From a virus (lineage: Duplodnaviria > Heunggongvirae > Uroviricota > Caudoviricetes), in IMG/VR virus record IMGVR_UViG_3300029841_000003: DNA of 64,000 bases; one strand, written 5' to 3'. Made by a program: the position numbers and the translations under genes. Shown here one piece after another: positions 13,039-47,462 of this stretch. The stretch's first letter is position 1. Each line of letters opens with the position of its first letter. A model generated the notes under the pieces. That model saw only the letters and a program-made list of their open reading frames with translations. It searched no databases and was not told the DNA's origin.

Positions 13039-13111
13039 AGGGTAGTGGCCAAGCGGTAAGGCACAGCACTTTGACTGCTGCATTCATGGGTTCGAATCCC
13101 ATCTACCCCGT
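13039..13111 (+). tRNA. tRNA-Gln (anticodon TTG)
   Basis: Cloverleaf by eye: D-arm GCC-AAGCGGTAA-GGC, anticodon stem CAGCA/TGCTG, loop CTTTGAC, T-arm ATGGG-TTCGAAT-CCCAT and acceptor AGGGTAG/CTACCCC. The 1:72 pair is an A:C mismatch. No CCA is encoded. Confidence 0.6.
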
Positions 13112-13478
13112 AGTTCTAAGTTAGCTCTGAAGGCCAAAGAGGTAACCAATAGAACTAAGGTATACCTACTTATGTTCATGGCGAACATAGATAAAACTTA
13201 AGTGAAATTTTGGATGGTTTAATAACTGGAACCTGTTCAAAAAAGGGAACACAGTACATTGGTAGCAATGGTTTGAATGTACAAAACATTTATATAGATG
13301 TGCTTTGTGCTAATGAGTAATTAGTATAAGGCGAAAAAAGTAATTGAGTCAGTGAGGTAGAGGTGAGTGATGGGGCAACGGAATGGTGACGACTGTTCGT
13401 GTAGCTGACATGATTACAAATCAATCATTATAGTTGTTACGTTTTTATATGTGGGTGTTTTCAAAGTTCACCCACTAT

Positions 13479-13552
13479 GGAAACTTAGCTCAGTTGGTTA
13501 GAGCAACCGGCTCATAACCGGTCGGTCCTGGGTTCGAGTCCCAGAGTTTCCA
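13479..13552 (+). tRNA. tRNA with CAT anticodon (elongator Met, or Ile2 if lysidinylated)
   Basis: Acceptor GGAAACT/AGTTTCC, D-arm GCTC-AGTTGGTTAG-AGC, anticodon stem ACCGG/CCGGT, loop CTCATAA and T-arm CCTGG-GTTCGAG-TCCCAG. G1-C72 argues against an initiator tRNA. Confidence 0.75.
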
Positions 13553-13783
13553 CTTCTCCTGACGAAGGAGTGACTTTTGAGAGCTCTAATTTTCAATAGT
13601 AAAGAGCCGTTGCTGATTTGGTAGTGAGAATCAGATGGCGCTGGAAAGACAGATAGTTTTTGAGATGTTTTGTAAAGTAATAAATGTCCCAGCTTTAGAG
13701 AAAATGTAGGGAATTGAGCTGATCAAAGAACACATAATCCTGTTGTGACTGCAGCACGACAGGTCATGCATGAAAATTTAGTA

Positions 13784-13856
<73 letters not shown>

Positions 13857-14099
13857 ATTTGTGATCCTGAGATGGTAACAAAATTGGTTTAAAATCCAAT
13901 TGTCCCCAAAATATATAAAAACGTGAATAGTAGTAAAGCGATTGTACTGCGAAAGCAACTGATTCATCAGTTATGAGGGATGATCTTATCAGAAATGAAT
14001 GATAAGAAGTTCATAAGAGAACTGACAGTAAAGTAGCGTTTACTGTTGAACAAAAGAAAATAGTAACTATTAAAGTTTAAAATTCAGGAGGTATTTATT

Positions 14100-14738: not shown

Positions 14739-14929
14739 GATATATTCACTGCTTATCGAAAACTTTAAACTATAATCTATATGTCTTTTTAGCTGGGTTA
14801 GACATATATAAAACAATAAAGAAACCACAGCATTACTTATACAGTAGATAATAGTATAAACTACAAAATGGATTAGGATTACGTGGTCGTATAGGACCTG
14901 TAAGCTTAATATATTATATTATTGGATGA

Positions 14930-15180: not shown

Positions 15181-15262
15181 CCACCCATGGTGGAATTGGC
15201 AGACACGTTAGATTTAGGTTCTAATGCTTAATAGCGTGAGAGTTCGAGTCTCTCTGGGTGGA
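15181..15262 (+). tRNA. tRNA-Leu (anticodon TAG), class II with long variable arm
   Basis: Acceptor CCACCCA/TGGGTGG, anticodon stem TTAGA/TCTAA, loop TTTAGGT, a 13-nt variable arm and T-arm GAGAG-TTCGAGT-CTCTC. A palindrome GGCAGTTcAACTGCC sits just upstream. Confidence 0.7.
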
Positions 15263-25296: not shown

Positions 25297-27918
25297 ATGA
25301 ATTTTAATGGATTAAAAAGTAGCGAAGTAGAGGTTAGTAGGACTACATATGGAAGTAATAAGCTTCCGGAACCTGAATTGAAAAAATGGTATCATTTTGC
25401 TAAGGAAGCATTAACTGAACCAATTACTATGATTCTAATAATAATTGCTTTGTTTCAGTTGGTTTTAGGCGCTATGGGAGTAATGTCTCTTTCTGAACCT
25501 GTAATGATTATAGTGGTTTTAGCTATTGTTACTGGAATTGCTATTAAGACAGGTCTAGGCGTACAGAAATCTGCAGCAGAGCTAAGAGCAAAAACGGCAG
25601 TTAGATATTGTGATGTTGTCCGAGATGGAAACGTACAGACAATTAATAAAGATGATCTGGTAGTAGGTGATTTAGTTCTATTGAGAACTGGACAAGAGAT
25701 TTTTGCAGATGGATTTATTGTTGATGGAGAAATTTCTGTTAATAACGCCGCTATCAATGGAGAGACAAAAGAATGTAGAAAAATTCCTAGTGCTAATTAT
25801 AAGCATGTTAAAACAACATCAACTACTGCATATACGGATCAGTGTTCTCTCTTTGCAGGAACAGTTATCATGTCTGGTGAAGGAAAAATGATTGTTACAG
25901 ATGTTGGTGTTAATACAGTTAATGGTGATACTCTTGTCAAAATGCAGACTTTAGAGCCTCCTAAGACAGCTCTTGATATTGCTCTGGATCATTTGTGTGA
26001 TTTTATTTCAAAATGGGGAACAATTGCGGCAGCATTAGCATTTGTAATTATGACAATTACAGGTATCTTAAATGCTGGAAGCTTAAGTCAGTATTTCTTA
26101 GGAAGTATTCTTGAAAGTATTCAGAAGGTAGCACAGAATGTCTCAAATGCATTGACAATTATTGTTGCGGCTGTACCGGAAGGTCTGCCACTCATTGTAA
26201 AACTTGTAACTAAACAGAATGTATCGACAATGGAAAAATTCAATATTCTTGCGAAGAATACTGGTAAAATTCCTGAATTGGCGTATGTTAATTTAATTTG
26301 TACGGATAAGACAGGAACTCTCACAACAGGTGAAATGACCTCTACAGTTATGATTAACGGTAACTGTCAGGATATTTTTAATAAGGAAAGTTCGCTCAAC
26401 GAGCTAATTGATTTAAACATTTGCATGAACAATAGCGCAGTGTTTGACTCTAATGGAAACATCACTGGTGGTAATTCGATTGATCGAGCAGTGCTTGATA
26501 TGCTTTCTCCTGAAGATGCACAAAAAATACAGAATAAAGCTATCATAAAGAAACGTGTTCCATTTAGTAGTGAAAATAAATTCTCTGCAATTACTTTAAG
26601 TAATGGAGCAAATGATTTTACTGTTTATAAGGGTGCACCAGAAAAACTGATTGAGAAATGCAAAACTTATCTCGATAATGATGGCAATGTAACTGAGCTA
26701 ACAGAAGAAAAACGAAAAGCTTTGAAAAGTCATATTAAGGGATTAACAGAGAAAGCAATGAGGTGTATTGCATTGACTATCTCAGATAAAGCTGATGATG
26801 GTCTCCCTGATGAAATGAATTTCCTTGGAGTCATTGGAGTTGTTGACCCGGTTAGGAATGAAGTTCCAGAAGCAGTAAAAATTGCTCATAAAGCTGGAAT
26901 TCAGGTAATTGAAATTACTGGTGATTGCATGGAGACGGCTAAGGCTGTTGCTATGGAAGCTGGCATTTATAAGCCTGGAGACTTAGCAGTTACTAATGAT
27001 GAGTTTGAGGCAATGTCAGATGTAAAAGTAAAAGAAATTATTCCACAGTTAAGAGTAATTTCCAGATGCTCACCGAATACGAAACTTCGTCTTGTAACAT
27101 TAGCGCAAGAAATTGGAATGTCTGTAGCAATGACAGGTGATGGTGTGAACGATGCTCCTGCATTAAAGAAAGCAGATGTAGGCTTTGGAATGCAAGACGG
27201 ATCTGATGTAGCAAAAGAAGCAGCAGACATTGTTTTGACGGACAATAATTTTGCAAGTGTAGTAAAAGCAGTCGAACTTGGTAGAACATTTATGCATAAC
27301 ATTATGATGTTCCTTGAATTCCAGCTGCCTATCAATATTTCGTTGTTGATCTTAAGTATGGTATTTCCAATTATTTCTGGTGGCTCTGCTCTATTAGCAG
27401 CAGTTCAGATCCTTATTGTAAATATCATCATGGATTCACTTAACTCATTAAGCTTTGGTGGAGAACCGCCAAAAGAAGAATATATGAATGAAGAGCCTAT
27501 CATGAAAGGATCCGGATTATTTATCCGTGGAGCGAAAGGGAGAATTGCATTAAGTTCAATTGTATTTATTGCTTTATTTGGTGTAATTACATTTGGTCCA
27601 GTTGGGAATATGTTTACAACAAAACTTTCGGCTATGACAGCGAGATTCGCTTTATTGTGTTTAATGGCAGTATTTAATGGATTCACTATTAGAACAGATA
27701 GTATGAATCTTTTCAAAGGAATTAAAAATAATAAATTATTTGTGTATATCGCATTAGGTATTTTTGCAATGACTGTAGTTTTGTGTAATTTTGTAGGAAA
27801 TTTAGTACAGACAACTCCAATGGATGTTAAACAGTGGATTGTAGTCTTAGTGACAGCTTTTATGATTGTGCCTGTAGATTGGATTAGGAAAGCAATTTGT
27901 AAGAAAGGAAGTAAATAA
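25297..27918 (+). CDS. P-type cation-transporting ATPase
   Basis: 873 aa with the phosphorylation motif ICTDKTGTLT, a TGD motif (ITGDCMETA), the hinge MTGDGVNDAPALKKADVGFGM and multiple TM segments at both ends. Confidence 0.85.
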   Translation: MNFNGLKSSEVEVSRTTYGSNKLPEPELKKWYHFAKEALTEPITMILIIIALFQLVLGAMGVMSLSEPVMIIVVLAIVTGIAIKTGLGVQKSAAELRAKTAVRYCDVVRDGNVQTINKDDLVVGDLVLLRTGQEIFADGFIVDGEISVNNAAINGETKECRKIPSANYKHVKTTSTTAYTDQCSLFAGTVIMSGEGKMIVTDVGVNTVNGDTLVKMQTLEPPKTALDIALDHLCDFISKWGTIAAALAFVIMTITGILNAGSLSQYFLGSILESIQKVAQNVSNALTIIVAAVPEGLPLIVKLVTKQNVSTMEKFNILAKNTGKIPELAYVNLICTDKTGTLTTGEMTSTVMINGNCQDIFNKESSLNELIDLNICMNNSAVFDSNGNITGGNSIDRAVLDMLSPEDAQKIQNKAIIKKRVPFSSENKFSAITLSNGANDFTVYKGAPEKLIEKCKTYLDNDGNVTELTEEKRKALKSHIKGLTEKAMRCIALTISDKADDGLPDEMNFLGVIGVVDPVRNEVPEAVKIAHKAGIQVIEITGDCMETAKAVAMEAGIYKPGDLAVTNDEFEAMSDVKVKEIIPQLRVISRCSPNTKLRLVTLAQEIGMSVAMTGDGVNDAPALKKADVGFGMQDGSDVAKEAADIVLTDNNFASVVKAVELGRTFMHNIMMFLEFQLPINISLLILSMVFPIISGGSALLAAVQILIVNIIMDSLNSLSFGGEPPKEEYMNEEPIMKGSGLFIRGAKGRIALSSIVFIALFGVITFGPVGNMFTTKLSAMTARFALLCLMAVFNGFTIRTDSMNLFKGIKNNKLFVYIALGIFAMTVVLCNFVGNLVQTTPMDVKQWIVVLVTAFMIVPVDWIRKAICKKGSK

Positions 27919-27919
27919 A

Positions 27920-28687
27920 ATGGGATTTTTTGATAAGTTATTTGGGAAAAAAGATGAGGAAGCAGCAGTAGAGTTATCTTCTGCTGTAACTCAGCAACCT
28001 GTATATGAAGAAAAGTTACAGACAATTGATATGTCTAAGCACAGTGAAAATCTTGGCAAAGTACTTATTGATATGTCTAAGGGAAGCAAGATTGATATGA
28101 CAAAACATACAGCTAGAGTAGCTCTTGCAATGGATTATTCAGGAAGTATGGATTGGCTGTATGATAATGGATCTGTACAGGAAACCATTTCTCGTTTGTT
28201 GCCTATTGCTCTAAGATTTGACGATAATGGAGAACTTGAGAGTTGGTTGTTCTCAAATGGAGCGGAGCGCTTAAAAGCTGCTAACGCTGATAATTATAGT
28301 AGTTATGTTAAAAATGTTATGAAAAAAGCTCATATGTATATGGGTGGTACTAATTATGCTCCTGTATTGAAAGAAATGGTTACATATTATAAAGATATTG
28401 AGCCAAGTGAGATTCCAGCATTTATCATCTTTATTACAGATGGTGAGAACAGTGACACTTCTGCCACCAATGCAGTTATTAAAGAGCTTTCAGAGTACAA
28501 CATCTTTGTACAGTTCATAGGAATTGGGGATGAAGATTTTGGTTATTTAAAATCCCTTGACAATATGAAAGGTAGAAAACATGATAACACCGGTTTTACA
28601 GCAGTAAAAGACATGAATAAAATGTCTGATGAACAGTTATATACAGAGATTCTTCGTCAGTATAAAGACTGGCTGAATAATAAATAA
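27920..28687 (+). CDS. von Willebrand factor A (vWA) domain protein, TerY-like
   Basis: MIDAS motif DYSGSM, then GGTNYAP and IFITDG, which are typical vWA blocks. Confidence 0.6.
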   Translation: MGFFDKLFGKKDEEAAVELSSAVTQQPVYEEKLQTIDMSKHSENLGKVLIDMSKGSKIDMTKHTARVALAMDYSGSMDWLYDNGSVQETISRLLPIALRFDDNGELESWLFSNGAERLKAANADNYSSYVKNVMKKAHMYMGGTNYAPVLKEMVTYYKDIEPSEIPAFIIFITDGENSDTSATNAVIKELSEYNIFVQFIGIGDEDFGYLKSLDNMKGRKHDNTGFTAVKDMNKMSDEQLYTEILRQYKDWLNNK

Positions 28688-28704
28688 AAAGGAGATAAAG
28701 AGAT

Positions 28705-29343
28705 ATGGCAGTAATCAACATGAGCAAAAATCAGAAAATTAGTATGGTAAAAGAGGATGGTACAGGTATTAAGAACTTCTTCATTGGAGTCAATTGGGAT
28801 CAGAACCGTTATGCTGGTGAAGCAGATATTGACTTTGATATCAATGGATTTTTAACAGATTCAAGTCGCAAAGTAGTATACCCAGAAGATTTAGTAAACT
28901 ATAAAACCTATGAAGATGGGTCTGCATATCCTTGGGTAGATTATTCAGGAGACAATAAAACTGGTGATGATTCTCAGGGAATGATTTTTAATGGAAAGCA
29001 TTATGACGAATATTTTATTGTACATGCTGACACATTCCCGAAAGATAAAACAGAATTTACTATCTGCTTAACAATTTTTAGGGCATTACAGCGTATGCAG
29101 AACTTTGGAATGGTCTCCAATGCAGTTATGACAATTTGTGATTACGACAATCCAGATGGTGATAAGTATGAATATGATCTGTCTGAGAATGAGAACTTTG
29201 AAAAATTGAATGCAGTAGAAATGGGTAAATTATACCGTTACGGAGATGGATTCAAATTCCAGGCATTAGGTTCCGGTTATGTGGGAGGTATGACAGAACT
29301 GTTTAAAAACTTTGGGCTTGATATTGATGAGGGGAGAGACTAA
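28705..29343 (+). CDS. terD: TerD-domain protein (tellurium-resistance/stress TerD family)
   Basis: Blocks align by eye to TerD: ISMVK, GVNWD, SGDNKTGDDSQG, FGMVSNAVMTI, GKLYRYGDGFKFQALGSGYVGGMTELFKNFG. Confidence 0.8.
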   Translation: MAVINMSKNQKISMVKEDGTGIKNFFIGVNWDQNRYAGEADIDFDINGFLTDSSRKVVYPEDLVNYKTYEDGSAYPWVDYSGDNKTGDDSQGMIFNGKHYDEYFIVHADTFPKDKTEFTICLTIFRALQRMQNFGMVSNAVMTICDYDNPDGDKYEYDLSENENFEKLNAVEMGKLYRYGDGFKFQALGSGYVGGMTELFKNFGLDIDEGRD

Positions 29344-30089
29344 TGAACTTATTTGAAATTGTGGTCCTAATAGCTGTAGTAATTAGTATTGTGTTATTTA
29401 TTGCACGTACAACTCAAATTGGTAAGAGAGTGTCACTTAGAGTTGCTGGTACAGCAGACGAAGCAATTCAAAAAGATGCAGCCACCCCTGAGGGAGCTAA
29501 AGCTTATTATAACGCTGCTATTGAAAAGAAAGAAGATGAACTTCAGCAGGAAAATGTAAGATATCAACAGATGCTTGGTAAGATTTCCAATTATGAAGAT
29601 GACCTGTTCCATTTGAAGAAAGATGCCATGAAAGCAGATGTAAATGTAAATGCTTGTGTGGATCGAGGAGATGACGAAGCAGCAAAAGTCTACTTAAAAG
29701 AACAACAGGAGCTGAATGATAAGATTGATTTTATTAAGAGTACATTAAAAGAATGGAAAGAGAATGCTGACGTACAGAAAGAAAAAGTAGAAGTATTACA
29801 GCAACAGCTTAATGATTTAAAAGCAGAAAAAGAAAGTGCTGTTTTAACTTTGGAAACAGCTCAGGCATCAAAAGCTTTTAATGTAACACCGGGAGTATCT
29901 TCTAGTGAAGAGGAAAAGATGCTAGAGAAAGTACGTGACGGAGTTAAAAAGCAAAAAGAGGCTGCTGATGGAGCTAGGATCGTTTATGAAAGTTCTACTA
30001 TTGTGCAAAAACAGCGTCTGGATAAGAAAATGAAAGATGATGAAATTAATAAAAAGTTGCAGGAACTGAAAACAAAGAAAGGCAAATAA
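29343..30089 (+). CDS. PspA/IM30-like coiled-coil protein with N-terminal TM helix
   Basis: N-terminal hydrophobic segment followed by a long coiled coil. Stretches such as DRGDDEAAKVYLKEQQEL resemble PspA (KDREDLARAALIEKQKL). Confidence 0.4.
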   Translation: MNLFEIVVLIAVVISIVLFIARTTQIGKRVSLRVAGTADEAIQKDAATPEGAKAYYNAAIEKKEDELQQENVRYQQMLGKISNYEDDLFHLKKDAMKADVNVNACVDRGDDEAAKVYLKEQQELNDKIDFIKSTLKEWKENADVQKEKVEVLQQQLNDLKAEKESAVLTLETAQASKAFNVTPGVSSSEEEKMLEKVRDGVKKQKEAADGARIVYESSTIVQKQRLDKKMKDDEINKKLQELKTKKGK

Positions 30090-31518: not shown

Positions 31519-32489
31519 TGAAAAAGAAAAAAGGTTTTTTAGGTGGGGTTGGATTAGCAGTAATAATTGCAGCAGGATTAATTTGTGTAGCAAAGTGCAC
31601 AGTAAGAGTTCCTGCTGGTTATGTAGCTGTAGAATACAAGATGAACGGTGGAATTTCAAAAGATACTCTTTCACAGGGATGGAATTTGATTTCACCTACA
31701 GTAAAAACATCACTGTATTCAATTGGTATTGAACAGTCTTATCTGACTTCAGAAGATAAAGGTGATTCACCAAAAGATGAGAGTTTTAAAACTCCTACCG
31801 CAGATGGGAAACAGCTTCTTGTTGATTTGGAATTCTCTTATAAATTCGATCAGGATCAAGTTGCTGATGTATTTACAAGATTTAAAGGTCAGTCCGGAGA
31901 AAGTGTAAAAAATACTTTCATTAAACCAAAGATGAAAGCGTGGACACAGGAAGTAACTGCTAAGTATCCGGTAACAGATGTATTTGGTGATAAACGCCAG
32001 GAACTGAATGAAGCACTTGACAAATACTTGAAAAAGAAATTTGAGCCATATGGAATCATCATTGATACTGTAAACTTTACTTCAATTTCTACAGATGATG
32101 AAACTCAGGCTGCTATTCAGAAGAAGGTAAATGCACAGCAGGAACTGGAACTTGCAAATATTGAAGCTAAGACTGCAAAGGTACAGGCAGATAAAGATAA
32201 GGAAGTTGCTCTCATCGCAGCGGAGCAGGATAAAGAGAAAGCCGCTATTGAAGCTGAACAGGCGAAAATCACTGCGGAAGGTAAAGCTGAAGCTACAAGA
32301 ATTAAAGCGGATGCTGAAGCAGAAGCAAATAAAAAGATCGCTGAGTCACTTACTCCAGAACTTATTGAGAAACAGAAGATTGATAAGTGGAATGGTGATG
32401 TGCCGAAGGTACAAGGTGGAAATGCTGCAACAATTGTTGACGCAGGAGAATTAACATCAGGCAATGTAGCAACTGTTGAAAATAAATAA
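31518..32489 (+). CDS. SPFH/band-7 (prohibitin/HflC-like) domain membrane protein
   Basis: N-terminal TM helix, an SPFH-like core (VPAGYVAVEYKMNGG ... TVNFTSIS) and a C-terminal Ala/Glu/Lys-rich coiled coil. Confidence 0.65.
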   Translation: MKKKKGFLGGVGLAVIIAAGLICVAKCTVRVPAGYVAVEYKMNGGISKDTLSQGWNLISPTVKTSLYSIGIEQSYLTSEDKGDSPKDESFKTPTADGKQLLVDLEFSYKFDQDQVADVFTRFKGQSGESVKNTFIKPKMKAWTQEVTAKYPVTDVFGDKRQELNEALDKYLKKKFEPYGIIIDTVNFTSISTDDETQAAIQKKVNAQQELELANIEAKTAKVQADKDKEVALIAAEQDKEKAAIEAEQAKITAEGKAEATRIKADAEAEANKKIAESLTPELIEKQKIDKWNGDVPKVQGGNAATIVDAGELTSGNVATVENK

Positions 32490-32509
32490 TTAATAATGAG
32501 GGTAACGTA

Positions 32510-32770
32510 TAGTGAGAACTGTGGACATATACCACACTGACGGTAGTGTAGGGATTTTGCGTCAGTATAAAGAGGTGGCTGCGTAGGGTGAGGATAACGT
32601 TAACAACTACGAATTGTAATGTTGGCCCAAAGCAAGTAAGTATAGTTATGATATCTGCTGCCATAGGCAACACCTCCTTCAAAAATAATGTGTGATACAA
32701 TCCCATATCACATTACCCATTCAGAAGATCCTCACCCGGTACAGACCTGGGATCAATAGTATTGTACTTT
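32510..32770. ncRNA. candidate structured ncRNA or regulatory leader (GC-enriched intergenic island)
   Basis: ~290 nt with no ORF. GC is visibly higher than in flanking phage DNA. Several inverted repeats are present, including CTGACGgtagtgtagggattttgCGTCAG and CCTCACC...GGTGAGG. Confidence 0.2.
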
Positions 32771-32777
32771 AGGTGAG

Positions 32778-32981
32778 GTGGTTTGTCAATATAAGGAGAG
32801 TACAATGATAAAAACTACGATTACGGAGACAACTAAAAAATATGATAAAGAAGGCCATCTTATTGAGGAGACAACTAGAACTGAAACTACTGAGGATAAT
32901 ACTATAACATTTAGTTCTTACCCCTATGGGACAACTCAGAAGGATTGGACCTTAACTACAAATGTAGGAGAGAGTTTATGA
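32778..32981 (+). CDS. hypothetical Thr-rich small protein
   Basis: 67-aa ORF with RBS AAGGAGAG. Confidence 0.3.
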   Translation: MVCQYKESTMIKTTITETTKKYDKEGHLIEETTRTETTEDNTITFSSYPYGTTQKDWTLTTNVGESL

Positions 32982-33343
32982 AAAAGAAAGTATTAAGTAT
33001 TTTAGGAGTTCTATTGATAAGTATTTCAACATTAACTGGTTGCGCTAAATGCATTGATAAAAAAGAGGAAAGTGTGAAGGTCACAGTTGTAAATGAATAT
33101 TATAAACCTAAAGAAACCCGTTTTACAGGTATGGTTAATCATGTTCCGCAATTTCGAACTGATTATGCTGAATATGAAATTACGGTAAATTATAACGGAA
33201 CTGAATATTCACTTAATGATGAAAGTACATATCGTAAATATCATGGAAGAATAGGGCAAACAGTGTCTGCCGTATTGATTACAAAAACATACGATAATGG
33301 CAAGGTAAAACAATGGATTGATAGTTTAGGAGGAATTAAGTGA
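32945..33343 (+). CDS. putative lipoprotein
   Basis: Signal peptide followed by a lipobox (LISISTLTGC). Confidence 0.45.
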   Translation: MDLNYKCRREFMKKKVLSILGVLLISISTLTGCAKCIDKKEESVKVTVVNEYYKPKETRFTGMVNHVPQFRTDYAEYEITVNYNGTEYSLNDESTYRKYHGRIGQTVSAVLITKTYDNGKVKQWIDSLGGIK

Positions 33344-33582
33344 TTAAGCAAACCATGGGATGGATTTCTGCTATATGTGGAGTAATTGGAGCTGTATGTA
33401 GTGGTTGGAAGTTAATGCTTTTGCCAGTAGTAACAATATTAAACATGATTGCAGATAAAAAATTAAACCTGTGTATTTTACTAATTTCAATTATGAAAAT
33501 GTTTTTTGCGATACCCATAGCATATTTCATGATTCTTATAGGATTTTCAATCGCTACATATTGTTGGAGGTGGTGGAAATAA
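33340..33582 (+). CDS. small membrane protein (2 TM)
   Basis: Hydrophobic 80-aa ORF. Confidence 0.3.
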   Translation: MIKQTMGWISAICGVIGAVCSGWKLMLLPVVTILNMIADKKLNLCILLISIMKMFFAIPIAYFMILIGFSIATYCWRWWK

Positions 33583-35270
33583 TTTGGATTACGGGTGATA
33601 CACATGGGGGTTGGATCCATAGATTAAATATGGACTCGTTCCCGGAGCAAAGAGAGATGACTAAAGATGACTATGTAATTGTTCTTGGAGATTTTGGGAT
33701 ATGGAGAGATTCACCTCAGCAAAGGTGGTATCTGAATTGGCTTGAAGAGAAGCATTTCACAACACTCTTTATTGATGGAAATCATGAATGTTTTCACAAA
33801 GATACAGATATTTTAACAATTAATGGTTGGATGAATATAAAAGATGTTGTTGAGAGTAAGGAAAATATTCTTGTAGCTTCAGTAAACATGGAAAATCACA
33901 ATATTTCATATTCGAAACCATTAAAAAAAGTTGTAAATTATTGTGATAAATTAATTGAAATTACAAGCTCTAATTTTAAGCAATGTGTTACTTTGAATCA
34001 TGATATTATAGTAAATAACAAAAAAATTAAAGCGAATGAATTATTAAAAAATAAATTTCGTATTGAAGACTTTAGATTTCATATAAATAATATAAATCCA
34101 GGAATTAATATAAGAAATGAGATTATTGAATTAATAACATCTGTTATCATGGACGGAACAATCGTTGATTATAGTCAAATAGATAGCAATTCAAAAAAAA
34201 TGAGAGTGCAATTCCATTTAAAAAAGCTTAGAAAAATAGCATACATAAAAAGTATCCTTGATAGATGCAAGATAAAATATACTGAGAGATATATGGGACA
34301 AAGTGAATGTTATTTGAATATTTATGGAGATGATGCAAGATATATAAATTCATTTTTAACAGGAATAAAGCAAATACCTTGTGAGTGGAGAAATATGTCA
34401 GATATTCAATTTATGTACTTTCTTAATGCTATAGTTAATACAGATGGAACATCATCTGGGAACAATATCGTATGGAGGACCACATCAAAGCATAACGTTG
34501 ATATTGTAACCGAGCTATGCATTAAAAATAATTATGATATCAATGTGATTACTTTAGATAATGCATCAGGCTACACTAATGATGGCTTAGTTCAATATCA
34601 AATTTCTATAGGGAAAAATAAGCGACTTGATGAAAAAATTAAATATGAAATTATTGAGTACAACGATAATGTATACTGTTTGACAATGGATAATGGTACT
34701 TTAATAACACGATACAAAATGTGTCCTGTAGTGAGCGGTAATTGTTACGATATATTAGATTCTTATCCAGTAGAAGAATGGCATGGAGGTAAGGTGCATT
34801 TTATTAAACCATCAGTAATTCATCTCATGAGAGGACAAGTATTTGATATAGACGATTTAAAATTTTTTACTTTTGGCGGAGCTGCAAGTCATGATATTTC
34901 AGATGGAGTATTAGAGATTGACGATCCAAGAATAAAGGAATGGAGGTATGATCCAGATAAGATGTATCGAATCAATCATATTTCATGGTGGGAGCGAGAA
35001 ATGCCAAATCAAGAAGAGATGGATGAAGGTATAAAGAACCTGGCAGAACATGACAATAAAGTAGATTTTATCCTGACACATTGTACAGCTTCTTCTACAG
35101 CAGCATTATTATCACATGGATTATATAAACCGGATAAGCTAACTGATTATTTGGAAGAGATCAGATGTAATGTTGACTATGGACGTTGGCTGTGTGGGCA
35201 TTACCACGACAATAAAGCAATAACGACAAAAGATATAGTTCTATATGAACAGATTGTGAGGATCGCATAA
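33573..35270 (+). CDS. calcineurin-like metallophosphoesterase interrupted by an intein
   Basis: GTG start after RBS GGAGGTGG. Metallophosphoesterase motifs GDTHGG, GDFG and GNHE. The intein (33789-34742) is inserted immediately after GNHE. The extein resumes with CYDIL...GGKVHF...GHYHD. Confidence 0.6.
   Translation: MEIIWITGDTHGGWIHRLNMDSFPEQREMTKDDYVIVLGDFGIWRDSPQQRWYLNWLEEKHFTTLFIDGNHECFHKDTDILTINGWMNIKDVVESKENILVASVNMENHNISYSKPLKKVVNYCDKLIEITSSNFKQCVTLNHDIIVNNKKIKANELLKNKFRIEDFRFHINNINPGINIRNEIIELITSVIMDGTIVDYSQIDSNSKKMRVQFHLKKLRKIAYIKSILDRCKIKYTERYMGQSECYLNIYGDDARYINSFLTGIKQIPCEWRNMSDIQFMYFLNAIVNTDGTSSGNNIVWRTTSKHNVDIVTELCIKNNYDINVITLDNASGYTNDGLVQYQISIGKNKRLDEKIKYEIIEYNDNVYCLTMDNGTLITRYKMCPVVSGNCYDILDSYPVEEWHGGKVHFIKPSVIHLMRGQVFDIDDLKFFTFGGAASHDISDGVLEIDDPRIKEWRYDPDKMYRINHISWWEREMPNQEEMDEGIKNLAEHDNKVDFILTHCTASSTAALLSHGLYKPDKLTDYLEEIRCNVDYGRWLCGHYHDNKAITTKDIVLYEQIVRIA
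33789..34742 (+). mobile_element. intein with LAGLIDADG homing-endonuclease domain
   Basis: Begins with block A CFHKDTDILTINGWMNIKDV (C..DT.I....G). Two LAGLIDADG-like motifs are present (LITSVIMDGTIV and FLNAIVNTDGTSS). Ends VVSGN, followed by the extein Cys (+1 C at 34743). 318 aa in frame. Confidence 0.6.
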
Positions 35271-35482
35271 TGGCAGAGCTTACAGAAAACGCTAAAGATT
35301 ATATTGAATGTCTAAAAGATATATTACAAAGAAAATATCTACTGTCAGGTGAGAAAGCTTTAGATATGATTGCAACTTCTTATATTATGGAGTCTCTTAT
35401 TGATTACCCAGAAGAGACATTACATGATGATATTGAAGCACATGCAGATAATATTTATGAAGATTGGATAGGTGAGCTATGA
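35270..35482 (+). CDS. hypothetical small acidic protein
   Basis: 70-aa ORF whose start overlaps the upstream stop. Confidence 0.3.
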   Translation: MAELTENAKDYIECLKDILQRKYLLSGEKALDMIATSYIMESLIDYPEETLHDDIEAHADNIYEDWIGEL

Positions 35483-35627
35483 AAACATTTTTATCAATTT
35501 TGAATATTCTATGCTGGGGTATTCTAGGAGCCTATTGTTCATCAATAGGGATACATGGAACAAGATTTTATATAATATTACTAATTGTTGGCGTTATTGA
35601 TATACTTAGTGTTGTGGTGAGTAGCTT

Positions 35628-36185
35628 ATGAATTATTATATTTCAGACTTACATATTGGTCACACAAATGCATTGGCATTCGATGCTAGACCATTTAAGA
35701 CAATAGAAGAGAACGATGAAACTATTAAAAATAATTGGAATTCAGTAGTTGGCTTAGATGATGATGTTTATCTTTTGGGAGATATTAGTTGGTATGGCTC
35801 AACTAAAACATTGGAGTATTATAGCCAGTTAAATGGTAGGATTCATTTAATAAAAGGAAATCATGATAATAAGATTCTGAAAAACAAAGATTTACAGAAT
35901 TTATTTGTAGAAATAGTTGATTATAAAGAACTATACCTTAATCCAAAAGAGAGTATTATTCTTTGTCATTATCCGATTCCTTGTTTTAAGAATCATTACT
36001 ATGGTTGGTATCATTTATATGGACATGTACATACAGGTTTTGAAAATAATATGATGCAAAGAACAAAGTATGAAATGGAAAATCTATATAATACACCATG
36101 TAAAATGTATAATGTCGGAGCAATGCTGCTGAATTATACTCCTAGAACTTTAGAAGAAATAACAGGGGGAGCTACGTGTTTATAA
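35628..36185 (+). CDS. metallophosphoesterase (calcineurin-like)
   Basis: Motifs DLHIGH, LLGDI, GNHD, CHYP and GHVH. Confidence 0.6.
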   Translation: MNYYISDLHIGHTNALAFDARPFKTIEENDETIKNNWNSVVGLDDDVYLLGDISWYGSTKTLEYYSQLNGRIHLIKGNHDNKILKNKDLQNLFVEIVDYKELYLNPKESIILCHYPIPCFKNHYYGWYHLYGHVHTGFENNMMQRTKYEMENLYNTPCKMYNVGAMLLNYTPRTLEEITGGATCL

Positions 36186-36351: not shown

Positions 36352-37650
36352 ATGTATTGTGCTTACATTACTGAGCTTAAGCAACTTCGTAAACACAGCA
36401 ATGCTGATAGGCTCCAGCTTGGTACCGTTTTTGGAAATACGGTTATTGTTGATTTAAGTTATTACGAAGGGCAGAAAGTTGTATTTTTCCCGGTTGATGG
36501 TCAGCTAGGAGAAGAATTTGCAAAAGAAAACAATTTACTGCGTATTAAAAATGAAGATGGAACAACTACAGGTGGATATCTTGATCCTGTAAAACGAAAC
36601 ATTAAAGCTATGAGACTGCGAGGTGAAAAATCAGAAGGATTGGTTTTACCAGTAGAATCTCTTAGTAAATGGACTGATATAAATAAATTATCTTTAGGAG
36701 ATCAAATTACTGTACTTGATGGGACAGTTATCTGTAAAAAATATATTCCAAGATCAAATCATAAAAAATCTAACAATGGTCCGAAAGTAAAAACTCCAAA
36801 TTTAAAAAACAAATTTCCTTATTTTAAAGAACATGCTGATACAGAACAGTTAGCATATAACTTAAATGCCTTTAAACCAGGAGATACTTGTTACATTACT
36901 TTGAAAATGCATGGCACATCTGGTCGAACAGCAAATGCAATAGAAGTAACTACTAAGAAAAAGACTCTACTACAGAAACTTTTTTGTAGACCGGCTCCTG
37001 TTATCAAAGAATGGAAAATAGTTACTGGAACAAGAAGAGTTGTACTCAATACATTTGAAGGCGGTTACTATGGGAATGATAAATTTAGACAGAAATATCA
37101 TGACTACTTTATTGACAAACTGCCAAAAGGAATGGAAGTGTTTTATGAAATCGTAGGGTGGGTTGATGGTACAGAGCAGACCATTATGGGAACCTGTTCC
37201 AACACTAAAATTAAAGATAAAGAAGTTAAGAAGCTTTACGGTGATGAAACAGTGTTCTCTTATGGGTGTACTCCTGGTACTTCTGATATTTATGTTTATA
37301 GAATGACTATGACCAATGAAGATGGGATTATTACAGAGATTCCATGGGAAGAAGTAAAGAATTGGTGTGATCGTTTAGGAGTTAAACATGTACCTGAATT
37401 TGATAAATTCCTGTTTACTACTAAAGAAGATCTTATGGAGCGTGTAGAAAAATACTATGATGGGCCTGATCCAATAGGGGCGACACATGTTAGAGAAGGT
37501 GTAGTTGTAAGAATTGATAATAGAAGTAGCTTTAAGGCTTATAAACACAAGAATTTCACTTTCAAGGTCCTTGAAGGATTGATAAAAGATTCCTCTGATA
37601 CACCGGATATGGAAGAGGCACAAGAAATTATTGAGGAGGAAACTGTATGA
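36352..37650 (+). CDS. ATP-dependent RNA ligase (Rnl2-like nucleotidyltransferase)
   Basis: The motif I variant LKMHGTS (K-x-H-G, as in T4 Rnl2 KIHGTN) sits within a 432-aa protein. It is neighboured by phosphoesterases and an HD phosphohydrolase. Confidence 0.5.
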   Translation: MYCAYITELKQLRKHSNADRLQLGTVFGNTVIVDLSYYEGQKVVFFPVDGQLGEEFAKENNLLRIKNEDGTTTGGYLDPVKRNIKAMRLRGEKSEGLVLPVESLSKWTDINKLSLGDQITVLDGTVICKKYIPRSNHKKSNNGPKVKTPNLKNKFPYFKEHADTEQLAYNLNAFKPGDTCYITLKMHGTSGRTANAIEVTTKKKTLLQKLFCRPAPVIKEWKIVTGTRRVVLNTFEGGYYGNDKFRQKYHDYFIDKLPKGMEVFYEIVGWVDGTEQTIMGTCSNTKIKDKEVKKLYGDETVFSYGCTPGTSDIYVYRMTMTNEDGIITEIPWEEVKNWCDRLGVKHVPEFDKFLFTTKEDLMERVEKYYDGPDPIGATHVREGVVVRIDNRSSFKAYKHKNFTFKVLEGLIKDSSDTPDMEEAQEIIEEETV

Positions 37651-43991: not shown

Positions 43992-44978
43992 TTGACTGAA
44001 ATCAGTCAGAAAATCCGACAAGTAACTGAGGAGGATAAGGGGTTACCTTATCTCTCCTACAGTAAAGAGAGTAACTTTGATCACTGTCCACTGAGCCACA
44101 AATTAAAGTATATAGACAAAAACTTTTCAAAGAAATCGTCTCTTCCTATGGAAATTGGTTCTATTTTACATAAGGCATTAGAGCTTAAAGGAAGAATGAT
44201 AATGGAAGGTAAGACAGTAGATTATGACTATCTTAAAAGCATTACAGAAGAGGGCTATTTAGAGACTGATGAGAAGTCGGATAATCACATTCTTGGTATA
44301 AAAGACCTCAAAAAGAAATATTTTGATGAGTTTTTTACTGCTGATAGTAAGTCAGGTATGAACTATTCAGAAAAGATGGATATCTTTTATAACAAAGTAT
44401 TACCATCTAGGATTGATAGTAAAGAGTGGACTCCCGTAGCAGTAGAACAGAGATTTGAATTTGTATATGACGACAGAGTTATTATACATGGTTTTATTGA
44501 TAGAGTGGATAAGAATGCAAAAGAGCAGCTAAGGATTACTGACTATAAATCCTCAAAGGCCGTGTTTAGAGATGCAGATATAAAAACACCTATGCAACAT
44601 GTAATTTATGATCTGGCATGTATTCATTTATATGGACAGCCTGCAACAGACCATGTGTATGATTTTATTCTTATAGATGCTATTCAAGGAGCTGACGAAG
44701 GTGTATGTACCAAAGGCTATCTTAACAGAGGAATTAAGAAACTGGACAAGGTGTTAAATGAAATGGATGAAATGGAAATTAAAGGCGAGTATCCTCCCAA
44801 ACCAACTCCATTATGCTACTGGTGTCCATTCCACAGCACTTCCCCAAATGCTGATCCTAAGTTTTCTGGTCTATGTCAGTATCATAGCTTATGGACACCT
44901 GAGAAAAAATCATTTGCAGTACTTAATCCTTATGGACAAGAAATAAAGAAAGAAACTAAGAGAAAGTTGGTGTTCTAG
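43992..44978 (+). CDS. PD-(D/E)xK nuclease, Cas4/RecB-like with C-terminal Cys cluster
   Basis: IHGFIDRVD...ITDYKSSK motifs (D...D/ExK) and C-terminal CYWCPF...C (Fe-S/Zn cluster), typical of the DUF2800/Cas4 family. Confidence 0.55.
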   Translation: MTEISQKIRQVTEEDKGLPYLSYSKESNFDHCPLSHKLKYIDKNFSKKSSLPMEIGSILHKALELKGRMIMEGKTVDYDYLKSITEEGYLETDEKSDNHILGIKDLKKKYFDEFFTADSKSGMNYSEKMDIFYNKVLPSRIDSKEWTPVAVEQRFEFVYDDRVIIHGFIDRVDKNAKEQLRITDYKSSKAVFRDADIKTPMQHVIYDLACIHLYGQPATDHVYDFILIDAIQGADEGVCTKGYLNRGIKKLDKVLNEMDEMEIKGEYPPKPTPLCYWCPFHSTSPNADPKFSGLCQYHSLWTPEKKSFAVLNPYGQEIKKETKRKLVF

Positions 44979-47462
44979 TGAGAATAGAGACACATGCGCA
45001 TACAGAATTTAGTCAGCTTCGTATGTTGGACTGCATCGTAAAAGTACCTCAATTAATAAAACAAGCTGCATCTCTTGGACTTTCAGGAGTTGCTATCACT
45101 GACCATGAGTCTGTATCTGGTCATGTGAGATTTATTCAAACAATTAAATCCATGAAGTCTTCCGGTGAACTGCCGGAAGATTTCAAAGGAATACTTGGTA
45201 ATGAAATATATTTAGTTGACAAATTAAATATATCAGAAGATGGAAAGAAGTCTTGTGATTCTCCATTTTATCATTATATTCTTCTGGCTAAAGATGAAAT
45301 AGGGCATAAGCAGTTAAGAGAACTTAGTTCATTAGCATGGGACAACAGTTTTTATACAGGAAGGATGGAACGTGTTCCTACATTGAAAAGTGATCTGGAA
45401 CATGTAGTTAAATCTAATCCTGGACATCTGATTTCAACGACAGCATGTTTAGGAGGAGAATTAGGCAAGTCTCTATTAGCAGGAGAAAATTATATGGATT
45501 TTCTTCTCTGGAACCAGCAGTTATTTGGTAAAGATTTTTACTTGGAAATGCAACCGGGACTGTCAGAAGAACAGATAAAGTTGAATCGAGAGATTGTAAA
45601 ATTAAAGCATCAATTAGGAATAAAAGCTACTATTGCCTGTGATGTCCACTATTTGAAACAAGAGGATAGAGAAATTCATGCTGCTTATCTTAATAGTCGC
45701 GATGATGAAGAAAGAGAGTTAGGTGATTTCTATGAATCAACTTGGATGATGACCAATGAGCAAATTCATCAGAGGATGGATTATCTTGGGTATGAAGAAG
45801 TGGAAGATGCATTGAAGTGTTCTCTGGAGATTGGTGAGAAGGTTGAAGAGTATGATTTGTATTGTCCAACTATTGTTCCTGGAGCTGACATCCCTGATTT
45901 TGAGTTAAGTGATTTCTTTGGCAATTATTATGATCGCTATGAATACATATCTAAATTCGCTCATAGTGATAATGTTTATGATAGATATTTATTAAAACTG
46001 ATAGAAGATGGATATTATGAAAAGATTCCTTATACTACTTTCGGTAAAGTAAAATTTTTTGAGACTTTAGATAGAATTGAAGTTGAATTAAAAGAAATGT
46101 GGCTTGTTACTGAAAAGCTTGGTACAAGTATTTCTTCCTATTATATATCAACACTTGAGTTGGTTAATATTATGTGGGAAGAAGGAGATTCTTTAGTGGG
46201 TGTAGCCAGAGGTTCAGTAACAGGAATGTTTACAATGTATCTCATTGGCATTACTCAGATGAATCCTTTACAGTGGGGACTGCCTCATTGGAGACATATT
46301 TCCCATGAAAAAGTTGAACTCAGTGACGTAGATATCGACACACAGCAAGATAGAAGACTAAAAATCATTGAAGCTGTGAAACGTCGCAGAGGTGAAAGAA
46401 AAGTACTTAATTGTAGTACTTTTAAAACAGAGGGTAGTAAATCAGCTATTATTACTGCTGGTAGAGGATTAGGATTAGATTCAGATATCACTCAGTATTT
46501 ATCTAATCTTATCCCTGTTACCAGAGGTCAAACTTGGAGTTTGCATGATTGTCTTTATGGGAACGAAGAGAAAGAACGTCAGAGACAAACTGAATTTGCA
46601 AATGAAGTCAAAAAATACGACAAACTTTTAGAAACGGCTATGACTATTGAAGGGCTTATATGTGGAAGAAGTATACATGCTTCAGCAGTATATTTGTTTA
46701 ATGAAGATTTTTTGGCTCACAATGCTAGGATGAAAGCTCCAAACGGTATTTATATCACTCAATTTAATATGAAAGATTCTGATTATTGTTCTGGTCTTAA
46801 AATGGATTTCTTAACCATTCAGGCATTAGATAAGATTAGAACTTGTATGAATTTGCTAATTGATGCGGGATATATGAAATGGCAAGGATCACTGAGAGCT
46901 ACATATAATAAATATTTACATCCAGATGTACTTGATTATGATACTAAAGAAATGTGGGATATGGTTGCAAAGAATGATGTGACAGATCTCTTTCAGTTTG
47001 ATACTGCAGTTGGGCTCCAGGCAGCTAAACGAATCAAACCCCATTCCTTAGTAGAGCTTGCAACTGCGAACTCAATTATGAGACTTATGGTATCAGGAGA
47101 AGGCGCTGAACAGCCCATTGACACTTATATTAGGTATAAGAATGATATTAATGAATGGTACAAATGCATGAGAGATGAGTACCGTTTGACAGAAAGTGAA
47201 ATAAAAATATTAGAGAAATATCTATTACCTGTATATGGAGTAGGAGATACACAGGAAATTGTAATGGAAATTTCTATGGATGATCATATTTCAGGATTCA
47301 ATGTTACACAGAGTAATAAGTTAAGAAAAGGTATTGCTAAAAAAGATGAAAAACTGCAGGAAGCTATGAAAAAGATGTTCTTTGAACATGGCAAAGAGAT
47401 TGGAACTTCAGAGAATCTGCTGAACTATATCTGGAAAGAAGTTATAGGAAAGCAGCTTGGGT
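44978..47462 (+). CDS. dnaE: DNA polymerase III alpha subunit (DnaE-type), exon 1
   Basis: PHP domain N-terminus (ETHAHTEFS...ITDHESV) and the polymerase core. The exon ends ...KQLG-Y. The ORF-track read-through tail (LNTAQVKPCERMQ...) is intron sequence. Confidence 0.75.

Follow-up and report, generated by a model that had tools for sequence, protein, structure and literature searches.

Within a 64,000-nt stretch of Caudoviricetes DNA (IMG/VR record IMGVR_UViG_3300029841_000003; hereafter the window), a metallophosphoesterase (MPE) gene carries 318 additional codons in the middle of an active-site motif, raising the question of what this insert is and how the enzyme could function with it in place. 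The insert is very probably an intein of the class 1 type that contains a LAGLIDADG homing endonuclease, located between Glu72 and residue 73 of the host protein, inside motif III. From the sequence, we infer that this intein splices and that its endonuclease is active. The gene and its parts are as follows.

33573..35270, plus strand: MPE precursor gene, stop codon included (565 aa, 66.2 kDa)
33573..33788, plus strand: N-extein, 72 aa, with MPE motifs I (GDTHG), II (GDFG) and III (GNHE), ending ...FIDGNHE
33789..34742, plus strand: predicted intein, 318 aa, 36.9 kDa, isoelectric point 8.6, 26.5% G+C
34743..35267, plus strand: C-extein, 175 aa, with Cys+1 first and the remaining MPE motifs (…THC… and GHYH)

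The open reading frame (ORF; 33471..35270, plus strand) is uninterrupted across the insert. Its start codon is probably GTG 33573, as judged from the N-termini of homologues P0006 and P0124; translation would then begin MEIIWITGDTHG, and this start overlaps the 3' end of an upstream 80-aa ORF (33340..33582). The insert comprises 954 nt, or 318 codons in frame, with the layout GNHE↓C…SGN↓C (arrows mark the junctions). The Cys1 codon (TGT, 33789-33791) directly follows GNHE, which ends at 33788, and the terminal Asn codon (AAT, 34740-34742) is followed by the +1 Cys codon (TGT, 34743-34745). The open frame of the insert is not due to chance, given that a stop-free run of 318 codons has a probability of 5e-15 at the insert's own base composition and that none of 20,000 shuffles of the insert remained open; the other five frames contain 14-48 stops. 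The G+C content of the insert (26.5%) compares with 40% for the N-extein, 36% for the C-extein and 34% for the whole window. An element acting at the DNA level, namely an intron or a free-standing endonuclease gene, was considered and rejected, since the insert is stop-free in frame with both flanks and Rfam revealed no intron.

The host enzyme is a calcineurin-like metallophosphoesterase. Pfam Metallophos (PF00149) matched the N-extein with 28.8 bits (cut-off 21.5), PHROG 1649 (metallo-phosphoesterase) was matched at E 1e-43, and the protein carries the MPE motifs DxH, GD, GNH[DE], H and GHxH on an MPE sandwich fold. A model of the spliced 247-aa product made with AlphaFold (AF2) consisted of one intact MPE domain (predicted local distance difference test, pLDDT, 89.8; predicted template modelling score, pTM, 0.88), with the junction in a loop after strand 63-67, the loop bearing G69-N70-H71. 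The nearest solved folds of the spliced protein were Dbr1, LpxH and PptH (E 2e-5 to 1e-3); these reach a template modelling (TM) score of about 0.55 only, too distant a match to assign a substrate.

Homologues of the spliced protein define the limits of the insert at both the protein and DNA levels. More than 6800 homologues were found, mostly of 245-248 aa and without the insert, the best being 88-95% identical. There was no insert at the site in 119 of the 120 best extein matches, and the remaining one does not include the N-terminal part. In the protein alignment, homologues pass from GNH[E/S] to N/C-YDILD, so that the 318 residues form a single clean gap; the aligned intein-free homologues all have G69, N70 and H71. 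At the DNA level, a Logan metagenome contig (L004) matches the window over 32058-33792 (98.6% identity) and 34743-35251 (92.7%), with nothing between. On this contig the 12 nt that precede the junction and the 18 nt that follow it equal the spliced window sequence, the alignment puts the gap exactly at 33789..34742, and an intein-free site of this type reads …ATTGAYGGAAATCATGAA↓TGTTACGATATATTAGAT…. A 70-kb contig from ENA (L005) is a syntenic relative whose phosphoesterase gene is likewise intein-free; it shares with the window genes for a cation ATPase, vWA, TerD, PspA, a second phosphoesterase and an RNA ligase. A nucleotide search of 33300-35700 against GenBank phages gave zero matches.

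The original prediction, made from the window's letters and ORFs, had proposed a 318-aa in-frame insert at 33789-34742 right after GNHE, and these coordinates match codon by codon: the Cys1 codon adjoins GNHE and homologues skip exactly 318 residues. The host motifs that it listed (GDTHGG, GDFG and GNHE) were all found, as was GHYH farther downstream. It had also held that the enzyme must splice to become active. It is reasonable to suppose from the sequence that a 318-residue domain within motif III would block catalysis until excised, and that splicing would be required for activity. The opposite view, whereby the insert is a domesticated, non-splicing domain and the 66-kDa protein is the functional form, is extremely improbable, and no specific observation speaks for it. 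The insert splits an active-site motif and the closest homologues work without it, the splice-junction residues are all retained and are conserved across thousands of relatives, and the Asn-to-Cys change at the +1 position goes with the insert, as expected if splicing is required.

The insert contains the motifs of both a splicing domain and an endonuclease.

33789..33830, plus strand: splicing block A, CFHKDTDILTINGW, aa 1-14; Cys1 is the predicted N-terminal nucleophile
33981..34013, plus strand: splicing block B, QCVTLNHDIIV, aa 65-75; T68 is B:7 and H71 is B:10
34122..34166, plus strand: LAGLIDADG-like motif 1 (block C), IIELITSVIMDGTIV, aa 112-126; …VIMD122GT…, with predicted catalytic Asp122
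34407..34457, plus strand: LAGLIDADG-like motif 2 (block E), QFMYFLNAIVNTDGTSS, aa 207-223; …VNTD219GT…, with predicted catalytic Asp219
34668..34715, plus strand: splicing block F, NVYCLTMDNGTLITRY, aa 294-309; Cys297 at F:4 instead of the usual Asp
34722..34742, plus strand: splicing block G, CPVVSGN, aa 312-318; Ser316 (G:5), Gly317 penultimate, Asn318 terminal

The close family shows no variation at block A residues C1, K4, T6, L9, T10, G13 and W14, nor at I120-M121-D122-G123-T124 of the first LAGLIDADG motif. Even from the single sequence, blocks B and F could be aligned to the Mja KlbA intein (2jmz), with block F opposite IYDLTV. An AF2 model of the intein, based on an alignment of seven sequences (the insert and its closest relatives), had a pLDDT of 87 and a pTM of 0.86. 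When the model was compared with the PDB using Foldseek, the endonuclease-containing inteins TliVMA, PI-SceI, PI-PfuI and PhoVMA were the top matches, along its entire length (E 3e-14 to 1e-8), and the endonuclease domain matched I-DmoI and I-Tsp061I (E about 1e-5). This domain has two LAGLIDADG helices that each end in an acidic residue, in an alpha-beta-beta-alpha-beta-beta-alpha pseudo-dimer fold. The family profile matched the AceL NrdHF intein (6zgq; E 3e-7) and the Spl DnaX mini-intein (E 0.018), and tblastn returned full-length matches (21-27% identity) to phage inteins lying in genes for ribonucleotide reductase, DNA polymerase and thymidylate synthase. Block A and the two LAGLIDADG motifs are therefore present as first described, and the reading of the insert as a LAGLIDADG intein in an MPE is borne out by the precise deletion in homologues, the HINT and LAGLIDADG folds, and the conservation of blocks A, B, F and G. 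The finding named at the outset as speaking against an intein, a native domain without blocks F and G, does not describe this insert, in which both blocks are present and conserved.

The insert belongs to a very large family (over 2500 cluster representatives at E<=1e-10), almost wholly inserted at MPE motif III. An exhaustive profile search (hmmsearch) over 1.84 billion cluster representatives identified 7825 relatives at a threshold of E<=1e-3, of which 2533 reach E<=1e-10. A word-indexed protein search with the intein had returned only 10 relatives, an apparent rarity that is false given the 7825 found with the hidden Markov model. All close relatives (40-55% identity) interrupt the same type of enzyme at this site and terminate in [S/T]-G-N; relatives P0121-P0129 also lie at the same site. 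Conservation was assessed in those 116 of the best 150 matches that are full-length. About 100 of the 116 are inserted immediately behind GNH or GNH[D/E] (GNHE 44, GNHD 21, xGNH about 30). The terminal Asn (N318) is present in 115 sequences, a +1 residue of Cys, Ser or Thr also in 115, the block B His (H71) in all 116, and Thr or Ser at position 68 in 112. The LAGLIDADG aspartates are retained in 111 (first motif, D122) and 114 (second motif, D219) of the relatives, and Arg at position 308 in 105.

The C-terminus of the intein had been singled out as atypical because it reads SGN, with Gly in place of the usual penultimate His. This holds for inteins generally; within its own family the ending is the norm, with TGN in 72 and SGN in 27 sequences ([S/T]-G-N in 99/116) and a penultimate Gly (G317) in 111/116. 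Position F:4 is more variable, being Cys in 79 relatives, Ala in 17, Gly in 11, Ser in 8 and Gln in 1, and never Asp, although Cys is invariant there in the close family. The F:4 Cys is thus dispensable in the family, given that Ala, Gly or Ser takes its place in 36/116.

The residues required for splicing are present, namely Cys1, the block B T-x-x-H (Thr68 and His71), Asn318 and Cys+1. Two residues that usually assist, and are not obligatory, are replaced: the penultimate His by Gly317 and the F:4 Asp by Cys297. No conserved His was found in the family outside block B. Cyclisation of Asn must therefore rest on another feature, since the penultimate His, the F:4 Asp and a block F His are all absent; as a guess, the conserved Arg308 could stand in for the missing residues.

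The effect of a penultimate Gly has been studied in a same-site relative. Kelley et al. (2016, PMC5050341) described 37 inteins in the recombination directionality factors (RDFs) of cluster-A1 mycobacteriophages, which are calcineurin-like phosphoesterases, and a 2025 survey lists phosphoesterase among the established intein hosts of actinobacteriophages. The gp51 RDF intein of Bethlehem, which has a native penultimate Gly (G316), splices essentially to completion, whereas the G316H mutant is slower and accumulates precursor (PMC5050341). Gly317 is thus no sign of impairment, because Gly splices faster than His in this tested relative. The retrieved Bethlehem gene reads …EGNHD↓CSWTN…VWCLRVPNG…IHLTGN↓SRA, with an intein of 317 aa. 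The family profile aligned with it from residues 1-317 to 1-317 (hhalign probability 92%, E 7.5e-7), and pairwise BLAST was marginal (best E 0.017). The Bethlehem RDF (gp51/gp52) and the present protein share the site after GNH[D/E], a nearly equal intein length (317 vs 318 aa), Cys1, a LAGLIDADG endonuclease, V-[WY]-C in block F, the [S/T]-G-N end and the penultimate Gly. They differ in the +1 residue (Ser in Bethlehem, Cys here), in genome composition (G+C-rich in Bethlehem, A+T-rich here) and in the host enzyme, which in Bethlehem belongs to another MPE family and acts as the integrase-directionality factor of an actinobacteriophage, whereas here the enzyme has 247 aa and comes from an SPβ-like Firmicutes phage of the gut. 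The present intein is a distant member of this family, in which Bethlehem provides a functional example already known at the same insertion site.

The inteins of Rheinheimera Barba phages (QNO01741.1) and of the Klebsiella jumbo phage fENko-Kae01 (WNV47399.1) are 30-32% identical to this one along the full 318 residues (E 1e-27 to 5e-29) and share the arrangement Cys1…TGN↓Cys+1 in an MPE GNH motif. Insertion is one residue earlier (LGNH↓C…VTGN↓C in Rheinheimera and PGNH↓C…ITGN↓C in Klebsiella, against GNHE↓C here), F:4 is Gly or Ser, the host is a small HD-less 'DTHxGH…GNH' MPE, and the bacterial hosts are Gammaproteobacteria. In both cases the intein is unannotated: the Rheinheimera gene (L001 1255-2724) is labelled 'putative serine/threonine protein phosphatase' or 'hypothetical protein', and the Klebsiella gene (L002 1267-2844), with its intein in the GNH motif, 'hypothetical protein'. 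The structurally characterised inteins PI-SceI (1vde), PI-PfuI (1dq3) and TliVMA/PhoVMA (7qsu, 7qst) share the HINT and LAGLIDADG architecture with TM-scores to the query of 0.53-0.65, but are only 11-15% identical and reside in V-ATPase and ribonucleotide reductase. They have the canonical penultimate His, are larger and possess extra DNA-recognition regions.

Several points weigh against assigning the insert to active class-1-type inteins. Bethlehem, the sole relative with experimental data, shares only about 22% identity with it. The penultimate His and the F:4 Asp are both absent, with no compensating block F His. The curated Pfam and NCBIfam models for inteins and LAGLIDADG domains score under their cut-offs: with the single sequence, NCBIfam TIGR01445 (intein_Nterm) reached 19.4 bits against a cut-off of 24.5 (E 0.0016), Pfam LAGLIDADG_3 gave a weak match at aa 210-243 (E 0.13), and there was no Pfam Hint match at E<=1. 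Searched by itself, the sequence gave only sub-threshold intein and LAGLIDADG matches in Pfam, NCBIfam and the PDB, and the family profile and the structure model were required. Lastly, the endonuclease could be inactive despite its intact aspartates.

The Cys at F:4 also invites comparison with class 3 (WCT) inteins, which are defined by the absence of an N-terminal nucleophile together with Trp at B:12, Cys at F:4 and Thr at G:5; outside WCT inteins, F:4 is usually Asp (PMC2807308). The present intein resembles class 3 members such as the MP-Be DnaB intein (PMC2807308) in its F:4 Cys, in Thr or Ser at G:5 and in its association with phage, but it has Cys1 where they have no N-terminal nucleophile and Ile where they have Trp at B:12. 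Of the class 3 features, the F:4 Cys is present and the G:5 Ser is a partial match, with the remainder absent. A class 3 mechanism was accordingly rejected as the principal reading, as the intein has Cys1 and T-x-x-H, it has no Trp at B:12, and a third of the relatives have Ala, Gly or Ser at F:4.

Three family members (P0172, P0173 and P0219) have Pro rather than Cys or Ser at position 1 (GNH↓PYHKDT…, GNH↓PLSKDT…) and keep the F:4 Cys, the terminal Gly-Asn and the +1 Cys; two of the three are also without the block B Thr or Ser. These members may be inactive, or may splice without an N-terminal nucleophile.

A class-3-like or redox-gated route, in which Cys297 would be the branch nucleophile or a disulfide partner of Cys1 or Cys+1 and the phosphoesterase would be activated conditionally, is a doubtful proposition that we rate as very improbable. 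It draws on the F:4 Cys being a class 3 hallmark and otherwise unusual (PMC2807308), on the invariance of this Cys in the close family and its presence in 79/116 relatives, on Thr or Ser at G:5 as in the WCT triplet, and on the retention of the F:4 and +1 Cys in 3/3 Pro1 relatives that lack the N-terminal nucleophile. However, Cys1 and an intact block B T-x-x-H are found here with Ile at B:12, F:4 is Ala, Gly or Ser in 36/116 relatives, and the 3/3 Pro1 cases are not significant against a 68% base rate of F:4 Cys. Furthermore, the Bethlehem RDF intein, which also has VWC, was assigned to class 1 (PMC5050341). Only a little more credible, and still improbable, is the broader suggestion that the family uses uncharacterised catalysis, that splicing, and with it phosphoesterase activation, may depend on redox state or metal through Cys1, Cys297 and Cys+1, and that Pro1 members may follow a class-2- or class-3-like route.

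Under the favoured class-1-type reading, a 66-kDa (66.2) precursor would be translated first. Cys1, activated by block B Thr68 and His71, would form the N-terminal thioester, and Cys+1 would accept the N-extein by transesterification. Asn318 would then cyclise without a penultimate His, this position being Gly in the family. The products would be a 37-kDa (36.9) intein and a 29-kDa (29.3) enzyme reading GNHE-C-YD, the latter containing the junction peptide …FIDGNHECYDILDSYPVEEWHGGK. The endonuclease would cut intein-free alleles at …GGAAATCATGAA↓TGTTACGAT…, and repair from an intein-bearing copy during co-infection would copy the intein in, which constitutes homing.

The distribution of occupied and empty sites bears on this mobility. 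Of 119 homologues without an intein, 114 carry Asn next to GNH[E/S/D], 4 carry Cys and 1 carries Ser; the +1 residue of intein-bearing alleles is Cys, or Ser in P0128. Empty sites occur in two forms. The commoner one has AAT (Asn) after GNHE, as in L005 (GAG↓AAT, with four silent changes in the flanks); the rarer one has TGT (Cys), as in L004 1730-1732 (GAA↓TGT), and near the site it does not differ from the allele that carries the intein (window 34743..34745). Two distinct intein-bearing lineages have Cys-bearing empty alleles as their closest relatives: P0001 shares CYDILD with the window, and P0035, P0045 and P0054 share CFDRL with P0121 and P0122. This distribution fits repeated gain and loss, as in a homing cycle, and the empty Cys sites would be either ready homing targets or scars of precise intein loss. 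Intein-free alleles seem to predominate in the sampled metagenomes, as the cluster sizes suggest (691 members for P0001 and 2002 for P0005, versus 23 for the intein fragment P0124).

It is possible, though unlikely, that the splicing domain is intact and the homing endonuclease dead, leaving the intein as an immobile, vertically inherited passenger. Decay of the endonuclease is a normal stage of the homing cycle, in the close relative P0123 the second catalytic Asp is replaced by Asn, and the LAGLIDADG_3 match is weak, as given above. Against this, D122 and D219 are both present here and are kept in most of the sampled relatives, and the endonuclease domain is modelled confidently with an I-DmoI-like fold. 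Near-identical phages differ only by the presence of the intein at an otherwise identical site, which suggests that gain or loss was recent. Moreover, the Bethlehem RDF intein could be cloned only with an endonuclease-inactivating mutation, its endonuclease being toxic in Escherichia coli (PMC5050341).

The intein gene lies in a replication and nucleotide-metabolism region of a large phage, with all genes on one strand and five tRNA genes in the window. The source phage appears to be an SPβ-like phage of the human gut: the window's DNA polymerase is 48% identical to SPβ YorL, and the phosphoesterase relatives come from human faecal phage contigs. A six-frame hmmsearch of the window found no second copy of the GNH-type intein family, and the neighbouring small phosphoesterase (35628..36185; PHROG 547) has an empty site reading GNHD-N. 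The RNA ligase gene downstream of the intein gene (36352..37650) matches Pfam RNA_ligase (E 5e-9) and the PHA02142 OB domain. One might speculate that the Dbr1-like enzyme, the small phosphoesterase, the RNA ligase and the tRNA genes form a module for RNA repair or processing.

A second interrupted gene is the YorL-type DNA polymerase, which is in two pieces within 44978..49762.

44978..47542: DNA polymerase piece 1, 854 aa, PHROG 405 positions 45-783 of 1190
47651..48295: HNH endonuclease gene between the polymerase pieces, PHROG 59, E 5e-36
48374..49762: DNA polymerase piece 2, 462 aa, PHROG 405 positions 804-1094

This arrangement looks like a polymerase split by a free-standing homing endonuclease gene. 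Rfam detected no group I intron there at the gathering threshold; an unrecognised intron is possible. Elsewhere in the window, an Rfam RAGATH-27 RNA (14745..14832, plus strand; 91.3 bits against a gathering score of 76.1, E 2e-11) is located between a tRNA cluster (13039..13857) and tRNA-Leu (15181..15262). The cargo upstream of the intein gene (25297..30089), as identified by synteny with L005, comprises a P-type cation ATPase (873 aa), which PHROGs labels plainly as 'ATPase', and vWA/TerF-like, TerD and PspA/IM30-like proteins.

The intein is genuine but ordinary, a further case of a large known family of which one member has been experimentally tested, and the finding bears on no long-standing question. 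Gene 33573..35270 should be annotated as encoding an intein-containing metallophosphoesterase, in place of the 599-aa hypothetical protein given by automatic pipelines. Together with the HNH-split polymerase, it suggests that SPβ-like gut phages gather homing elements in their replication and nucleotide-metabolism genes. At the level of the family, a single intein lineage would occupy the GNH motif across many phosphoesterase families, with a penultimate Gly as its typical state, which extends the tested case of the Bethlehem RDF well beyond actinobacteriophages. The family may thereby serve as a source of natural variants for the study of Asn cyclisation without an assisting His.

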